From NCBI RefSeq assembly GCF_003018255.1, contig NZ_CP027440.1: a stretch of 64,000 nt of DNA, one strand, 5' to 3'. Positions within the stretch are counted from its first letter, which is position 1, and every line of letters begins with the position of its first letter. Of the stretch, positions 32,219 to 32,449 are shown one piece after another. The notes beneath the pieces were generated by a model that saw only the letters and a list, made by a program, of their open reading frames with translations, had not been told where the DNA came from and searched no databases. The translations under genes were made by a program, and so were the position numbers. The stretch is from Escherichia coli (GTDB lineage Bacteria; Pseudomonadota; Gammaproteobacteria; Enterobacterales; Enterobacteriaceae).

Positions 32219-32364
32219 CAAAGATGTCCTGTGTTTAAAAGTGATGCTGCCCGGACTCGACAAAGATTATCGGCGCGCAAGGGCAGAACTTTACCGCCTG
32301 GTCGGGGTAAATTTCCCCACTCCACAACGGAATCTTTCAGGAATACGTTCTGGCTCAAAAAAAT

Positions 32365-32383
32365 AATGGAACACTGTTTTAAT
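32365..32383. promoter_or_regulatory. Candidate KdgR operator in the kdgK promoter
   Basis: AATGGAACACTGTTTTAAT matches the KdgR consensus AATRAAAYRNYRTTTYATT at about 17 of 19 positions, about 65 bp upstream of kdgK. Confidence 0.45.
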
Positions 32384-32449
32384 ATGGTTGACCAGCAAAC
32401 CACCACAGCGCAAACTAACGCTAATTTTTTACAGATCAGGTTCACGACT

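Follow-up and report, generated by a model that had tools for sequence, protein, structure and literature searches.

We conclude that the imperfect palindrome at positions 32365-32383 of the window, the whole stretch of 64,000 nucleotides of Escherichia coli DNA that was analysed, is very probably the operator by which the IclR-family repressor KdgR holds kdgK off, and that the FliA promoter of pdeH, which lies in the same intergenic region, is separate from it, so that the two modules are independent. The features that enter into this reading are as follows, with positions given as those of the window.

31451-32218, minus strand: coding sequence of pdeH (yhjH), a c-di-GMP phosphodiesterase, as annotated by RefSeq in the identical strain and in MG1655; start codon ATG at 32218
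32293-32267, minus strand: FliA (sigma-28) class 3 promoter of pdeH, with the -35 element TAAAGTTC at 32293-32286, an 11-nt spacer, and the -10 element GCCGATAA at 32274-32267
32294-32340, no strand: poorly conserved spacer between the two modules, taken from the conservation profile; homology of the loci that lack pdeH resumes at 32341-32355
32365-32383, no strand: very probable KdgR operator, an imperfect palindrome of the form AATGGAAC-ACT-GTTTTAAT centred at 32374
32388-32393, plus strand: candidate sigma-70 -35 element of kdgK, TTGACC, proposed from columns that are invariant in the alignment
32411-32416, plus strand: candidate -10 element of kdgK, CAAACT, which is CACACT in most genera
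32450-33379, plus strand: coding sequence of kdgK (2-dehydro-3-deoxygluconokinase), from RefSeq of the identical strain and MG1655 and from the list of open reading frames

The pdeH/kdgK intergenic region extends from 32219 to 32449 and is 231 bp long. The first-pass annotation had put it at under 200 bp with a left edge at 32264; the length is too short, and the edge is misplaced, as it assumes that pdeH starts at TTG 32263, whereas both annotation and conservation put the start at ATG 32218. In the 255-aa protein, matches to pdeH orthologues start within residues 1-5, and TTG 32263 is 3 nt away from the end of the FliA -10 element, so that the transcript would begin downstream of this codon. 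For both reasons we reject TTG 32263 as the pdeH start. The 2.1-kb stretch around the operator is 100% identical to that of strain DETEC-S792, and a match to it was found in 5,422 of 5,426 complete E. coli genomes. The operator of MG1655 is identical to that of the window.

The 19-mer AATGGAACACTGTTTTAAT is found on the plus strand at exactly 32365-32383, upstream of kdgK, a gene of KDG and uronate catabolism; the distance to the kdgK ATG (32450) is 85 nt, and that to a conserved -35-like hexamer is 5 nt. An inverted-repeat finder did not return 32365-32383 in its output, because the arms of the palindrome are imperfect. The resemblance to a KdgR site, which had been noted in the first-pass annotation together with the suggestion of a matrix scan, was judged by three yardsticks. 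For the first, the 64-kb window was scored with AATRAAAYRNYRTTTYATT, the Dickeya KdgR consensus. With two mismatches to this sequence, the operator is the sole site in the 64 kb with no more than two, where 0.05 such sites are expected; a match of this quality arose in 5 of 100 shuffled sequences. When three mismatches were allowed, one extra site appeared at 3274-3292, a number equal to the chance expectation.

This consensus was backed by a published IclR-family consensus and by a matrix built from E. coli boxes. Against the type-2 motif of the IclR family, TGRAACA-N1-2-TGTTYCA (Suvorova and Gelfand 2021, PMC8222616), scored as TGRAACA-N-TGTTYCA, the operator is again the sole site in the 64 kb with at most one mismatch (expected, 0.03). 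With a symmetric matrix derived from only three E. coli boxes (one of kdgT and two of kduI, taken from the MG1655 upstream regions), the kdgK operator has the top score in the window, 23.1 bits, and the runner-up reaches 13.7 bits. The Dickeya consensus, the family consensus, and the matrix thus all single out this position as a match. The runner-up, AGCTATACAGTGTTTCAGT at 10684-10702, has a score equal to the mean best score of the simulated windows, and is therefore most likely a chance match.

One may ask whether the palindrome itself is a chance product of A/T-rich sequence with no regulatory role. A score as high as that of the operator did turn up in 1 of 200 simulated 64-kb windows. However, the palindrome sits in the one 231-bp region in which a KdgR box would be expected, and its half-sites are invariant over 80 species while the adjacent sequence diverges. 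This conservation pattern and the published genetics described below contradict an origin by chance, which we regard as hardly credible.

Conservation was followed across species, each represented by a single genome; this gave 80 kdgK loci, all from Enterobacteriaceae and with 86-99% protein identity, which together with the window make 81 sequences. The kdgK ATG follows the best KdgR-like site at a distance of 83-91 nt in all loci but two, for which the count is displaced because the protein match begins at kdgK residue 3. All 81 sequences carry GGAAC and GTTTTAA unaltered as half-sites, and the central triplet occurs in 11 forms among them (GTT, GTC, GAT, GAC, ACT, AGC, AGT, ATT, GGC, AAC, and GGT). 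The same is seen within E. coli lineages, in which the triplet varies (ACT, AGC, GGC) and the half-sites remain constant. Constrained half-sites around a free centre are the pattern of an operator bound by a dimer, and would not be expected of a chance palindrome. Among the window/MG1655, E69, and SCPM-O-B-8794 lineages of E. coli, sequence differences cluster in the triplet at 32373-32375, in the FliA spacer, and in the stretch between the modules (32275-32345), and all recognised elements are identical.

Upstream of the operator core, the flank CTCAAAAAAATAAT is invariant in the conservation profile. A-rich flanks are also present at other E. coli KdgR boxes, and the conserved A-rich flank at 32355-32364 is probably part of an extended KdgR box. 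A second KdgR site within the conserved block 32345-32364 was considered and rejected, as other genera do not keep the GTTC found there. The left half-site, TGGAAC (32368-32372), has a G in place of the A found in the kdgT and kduI boxes, and this G is fixed in all 81 sequences. It is permitted by the family-level consensus TGRAACA; its fixation as a non-consensus base may reflect tuning of affinity or a second constraint.

That kdgK is controlled by KdgR has been textbook knowledge since the 1970s, and comparative genomics of 2000 and 2004 reportedly predicted KdgR boxes at kdgK. Published genetics agree with the earlier assignment of kdgK to the KdgR regulon. [quoted passage not shown] 2019, PMC6958661). 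The same work states that KdgR boxes are present at eda, kdgT, kdgK, and kduD, citing Rodionov 2000 and 2004; our own search of the 640 bp upstream of eda gave no KdgR-like box with four or fewer mismatches. By RNA-seq, a strain lacking kdgR over-expresses kdgT, kdgK, kduD, and kduI (Sastry et al. 2019, PMC6892915). In Salmonella, kdgK expression cannot be detected in minimal medium, 2-keto-3-deoxygluconate (KDG) induces it in the wild type, and deletion of kdgR makes it constitutive (PMC4784465). Thus, the repression of kdgK by KdgR and its induction by KDG are established in the literature, and derepression of kdgK upon loss of kdgR, the absence of which had been named in the first-pass annotation as grounds for dropping the idea, has been observed in both E. 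coli and Salmonella. A literature search for a footprint or gel shift with purified E. coli KdgR at the kdgK site found none. From the consensus match, the conservation, and the genetics taken together, we infer that KdgR contacts E. coli DNA directly at exactly 32365-32383.

A second IclR-family regulator has been placed at the same DNA. The pdeH/kdgK spacer is among the high-affinity gSELEX targets of PlaR (YiaJ), and a probe of it was shifted with PlaR (PMC6958661). The printed primers for the pdeH/kdgK gel shift (PMC6958661 supplement) map to 32212-32231 and 32415-32437. Both match the plus strand, presumably because one of them was given as its complement in print; the probe was meant to cover the whole intergenic region. 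Binding of PlaR to the intergenic probe is therefore a published observation, and the PlaR box, ATnTGAAACnnnGTTCAnTT, differs very little from a KdgR box. Hence the site could be mainly an operator of PlaR, an IclR paralogue that acts on plant-sugar genes, or an operator shared by PlaR and KdgR in vivo. Against this, kdgK mRNA rises in the kdgR deletion and kdgK is not among the genes listed as up in the plaR deletion, and the PlaR gel shifts used micromolar protein (PMC6958661). We regard a main or shared role of PlaR as a less likely possibility, and retain KdgR as the preferred regulator of this site.

In the species comparison, a conserved candidate promoter of kdgK comes immediately 3' of the operator. 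TTGACC is present in 78/79 sequences, always at a gap of 5 nt from the operator (79/79), and the spacer between the candidate -35 and -10 elements is 17 nt in 78/79. The candidate -10 is CACACT in 67 sequences and CAAACT in 12, with CAAAAT in two Silvania species; the bases A2, A4, and T6 are retained in all sequences, the CAAAAT of Silvania included. The A at 32423 is invariant in the alignment. Judged from the alignment and the resemblance to consensus, this block would be a sigma-70 promoter of low strength, from which transcription is predicted to begin at A32423/4, equivalent to 3,679,392/3 in MG1655 NC_000913.3; the candidate -10 matches the consensus at 3 of 6 positions and the candidate promoter as a whole at 8 of 12. 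A sigma-70 and terminator scan of 32100-32600 with strict thresholds reported nothing, and the supplements of Kim 2012 contained no match for start sites of kdgK or pdeH. No CRP-like site with three or fewer mismatches was found in the pdeH/kdgK intergenic region, and no Rfam family matched within 31400-33500.

A different placement of the promoter, inside the palindrome, was also weighed. Repressor sites that overlap a -10 element are common, and TGnTTTAAT does occur in the window sequence within the operator, so that TGTTTTAAT could be read as an extended -10 with a start at about 32390; KdgR would then cover the -10 element and not the region upstream of the -35. However, the TG of TGTTTTAAT is not conserved, many species having CGTTTTAAT instead, and such a promoter gives no reason why TTGACC should be invariant, the spacing constant at 17 nt, and CA.ACT conserved. 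We consider this arrangement unlikely.

With the promoter placed 3' of the operator, the following sequence of events is proposed. When inducer is absent, KdgR would occupy TGGAAC and GTTTTAA, the two halves of the operator. The putative -35 element TTGACC begins 5 bp beyond the end of the operator and would be followed by the 17-nt spacer, the -10 element CAAACT, and the predicted start at A32423/4. Bound KdgR would thus span about -58 to -40 together with the edge of the -35 element, and may block the recruitment of RNA polymerase by occlusion. KDG would free KdgR from the DNA and allow transcription of kdgK. PlaR, for which this intergenic DNA is also a target in vitro, would play the lesser part, with KdgR being the repressor that matters in vivo.

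On the minus strand, the promoter sequence of pdeH, TAAAGTTCtgcccttgcgcGCCGATAA, agrees with the FliA consensus at 15/16 positions and has the canonical 11-nt spacer; such a match was obtained in 0/100 shuffled sequences. The -10 element ends 48 nt from the pdeH ATG, in the strand and position appropriate for this gene. The first-pass annotation had described pdeH as under flagellar class 3 control and had recommended a search for a FliA promoter on the minus strand; the promoter is present, at 32293-32267, and the class 3 assignment agrees with published data. FliA ChIP-seq gave the motif TAAAGTTCTGCCCTTACGCGCCGATAAT for yhjH, and RNA-seq expression was 511 in the wild type and 2 in the fliA deletion (Fitzgerald et al. 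2014, PMC4183435). By microarray, yhjH also belongs to the sigma-F regulon (Zhao et al. 2007, PMC1935009). Binding of FliA and FliA-dependent expression of pdeH are thus documented experimentally. Across species, the FliA motif, with one mismatch, accompanies pdeH in 73/73 sequences that contain the gene, and the best match has at least six mismatches in the seven species without pdeH; motif and gene therefore occur together.

Three further observations were made in or near the pdeH module. The cryptic-clade strain Escherichia sp. MOD1-EC7003 has lost nearly all of pdeH (window equivalent 31505-32255), with a 61-nt internal piece left, and its FliA promoter and entire kdgK module are intact. 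A 10-nt inverted repeat, GAACTTTACC at 32286-32295 and GGTAAATTTC at 32306-32315, has the FliA -35 element in one arm and the adjoining upstream sequence in the other; in other genera an A/T-rich patch at this place shows loose conservation. Some 90 nt into the coding sequence of pdeH, a CRP-like sequence, TGTAAGCACGCTCACA at 32122-32137, has one mismatch to TGTGA-N6-TCACA. CRP-like matches are fewer in the window than in shuffled sequences, and this one may therefore be due to chance.

The first-pass annotation had proposed that two unrelated regulatory logics meet in this region. Both are indeed found in one intergenic region, but the wording overstates their relation, since the elements are well apart, the spacer between them is unconserved, and they have been gained and lost independently. 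The edge of the FliA -35 at 32293 and the start of the operator at 32365 are 71 bp apart, and conservation in the region is lowest between them. Among the species examined, seven lack pdeH: five of Klebsiella, Intestinirhabdus alba, and Enterobacter sp. JUb54. In 7/7 of these, the FliA motif is absent and the operator and candidate kdgK promoter are kept. Furthermore, pdeH is not among the genes reported to be up on loss of kdgR (PMC6892915). Taking into account the unconserved spacer, the independent gain and loss across species, and the lack of pdeH among the genes reported as derepressed, we conclude that the pdeH and kdgK elements are neighbours only: independent modules placed back to back, rather than an integrated switch. 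The comparative data thus divide the intergenic region into halves that are separable as modules.

It has nevertheless to be considered whether KdgR or PlaR, bound here, also modulates the divergent pdeH promoter and thereby links uronate sensing to c-di-GMP and motility. The two genes have one common region of 231 bp, and the probe of the PlaR study was named pdeH/kdgK. On the other hand, the predicted pdeH start has the operator centre some 115 bp upstream, beyond the unconserved spacer, and the separate gain and loss of the modules, like the lack of pdeH among the genes reported to be up on kdgR loss, argue against such a link. We found no evidence of crosstalk between the KdgR operator and the pdeH FliA promoter, and judge an effect on pdeH to be very unlikely. 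A bolder version would have the operator serve as a joint KdgR and PlaR input whose occupancy also tunes FliA-dependent pdeH expression, so that plant uronates would feed into c-di-GMP turnover and motility, and the invariant G of TGGAAC would reflect selection for dual use; this, too, appears highly improbable. Independent control of the two genes, with KdgR acting on kdgK, thus remains our reading of the region.

The operator arrangement at kdgK and the FliA promoter of pdeH are already known, and the account given here is correct but ordinary: it mainly confirms the annotation and matters little beyond that. Because adaptive mutation during gut colonisation repeatedly hits kdgR, a well-defined operator and promoter could aid the reading of intergenic mutations at kdgK.

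Comparison with known systems was made at several levels. In E. coli, the box of kdgT is AATAAAACAGCGTTTCAAT and those of kduI are AATAAAACAATGTTTCATT and AGTGAAACACTGTTTCGTT. These boxes, the kdgK operator, and the gamma-proteobacterial KdgR motif, which is said to have been described by Rodionov et al. in 2004, have in common a 19-bp A/T-rich palindrome with AAAC and GTTT cores, three free central bases, and A-rich flanks. The genes downstream of the kdgT, kduI, and kdgK boxes are derepressed together on loss of kdgR (PMC6892915, PMC6958661). The kdgK operator differs from the kdgT and kduI boxes in its left half, TGGAAC versus T(G/A)AAAC, and in its right half, GTTTTA versus GTTTCA, and both deviations are fixed in 81/81 sequences. 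In MG1655, the kdgT box is directly followed by a CRP-like sequence, TGTGGTTTTGATCACT, whereas the kdgK intergenic region has no counterpart; catabolite control of these two KdgR targets may therefore differ. The PlaR box is of nearly identical pattern, and PlaR binds the pdeH/kdgK probe in vitro, but derepression of kdgK in vivo has been reported for the kdgR deletion and not for the plaR deletion (PMC6958661). Against the type-2 motif of the IclR family, TGGAACA-C-TGTTTTA matches with one mismatch, a pattern at the level of the family that is silent on which paralogue binds. Finally, compared with the FliA class 3 consensus, TAAAGTTT-N11-GCCGATAA, the pdeH element has 15/16 positions and the correct 11-nt spacer and is the yhjH promoter of the FliA ChIP-seq work; one position of that spacer, outside the recognised hexamers, is G in the window and A in MG1655.
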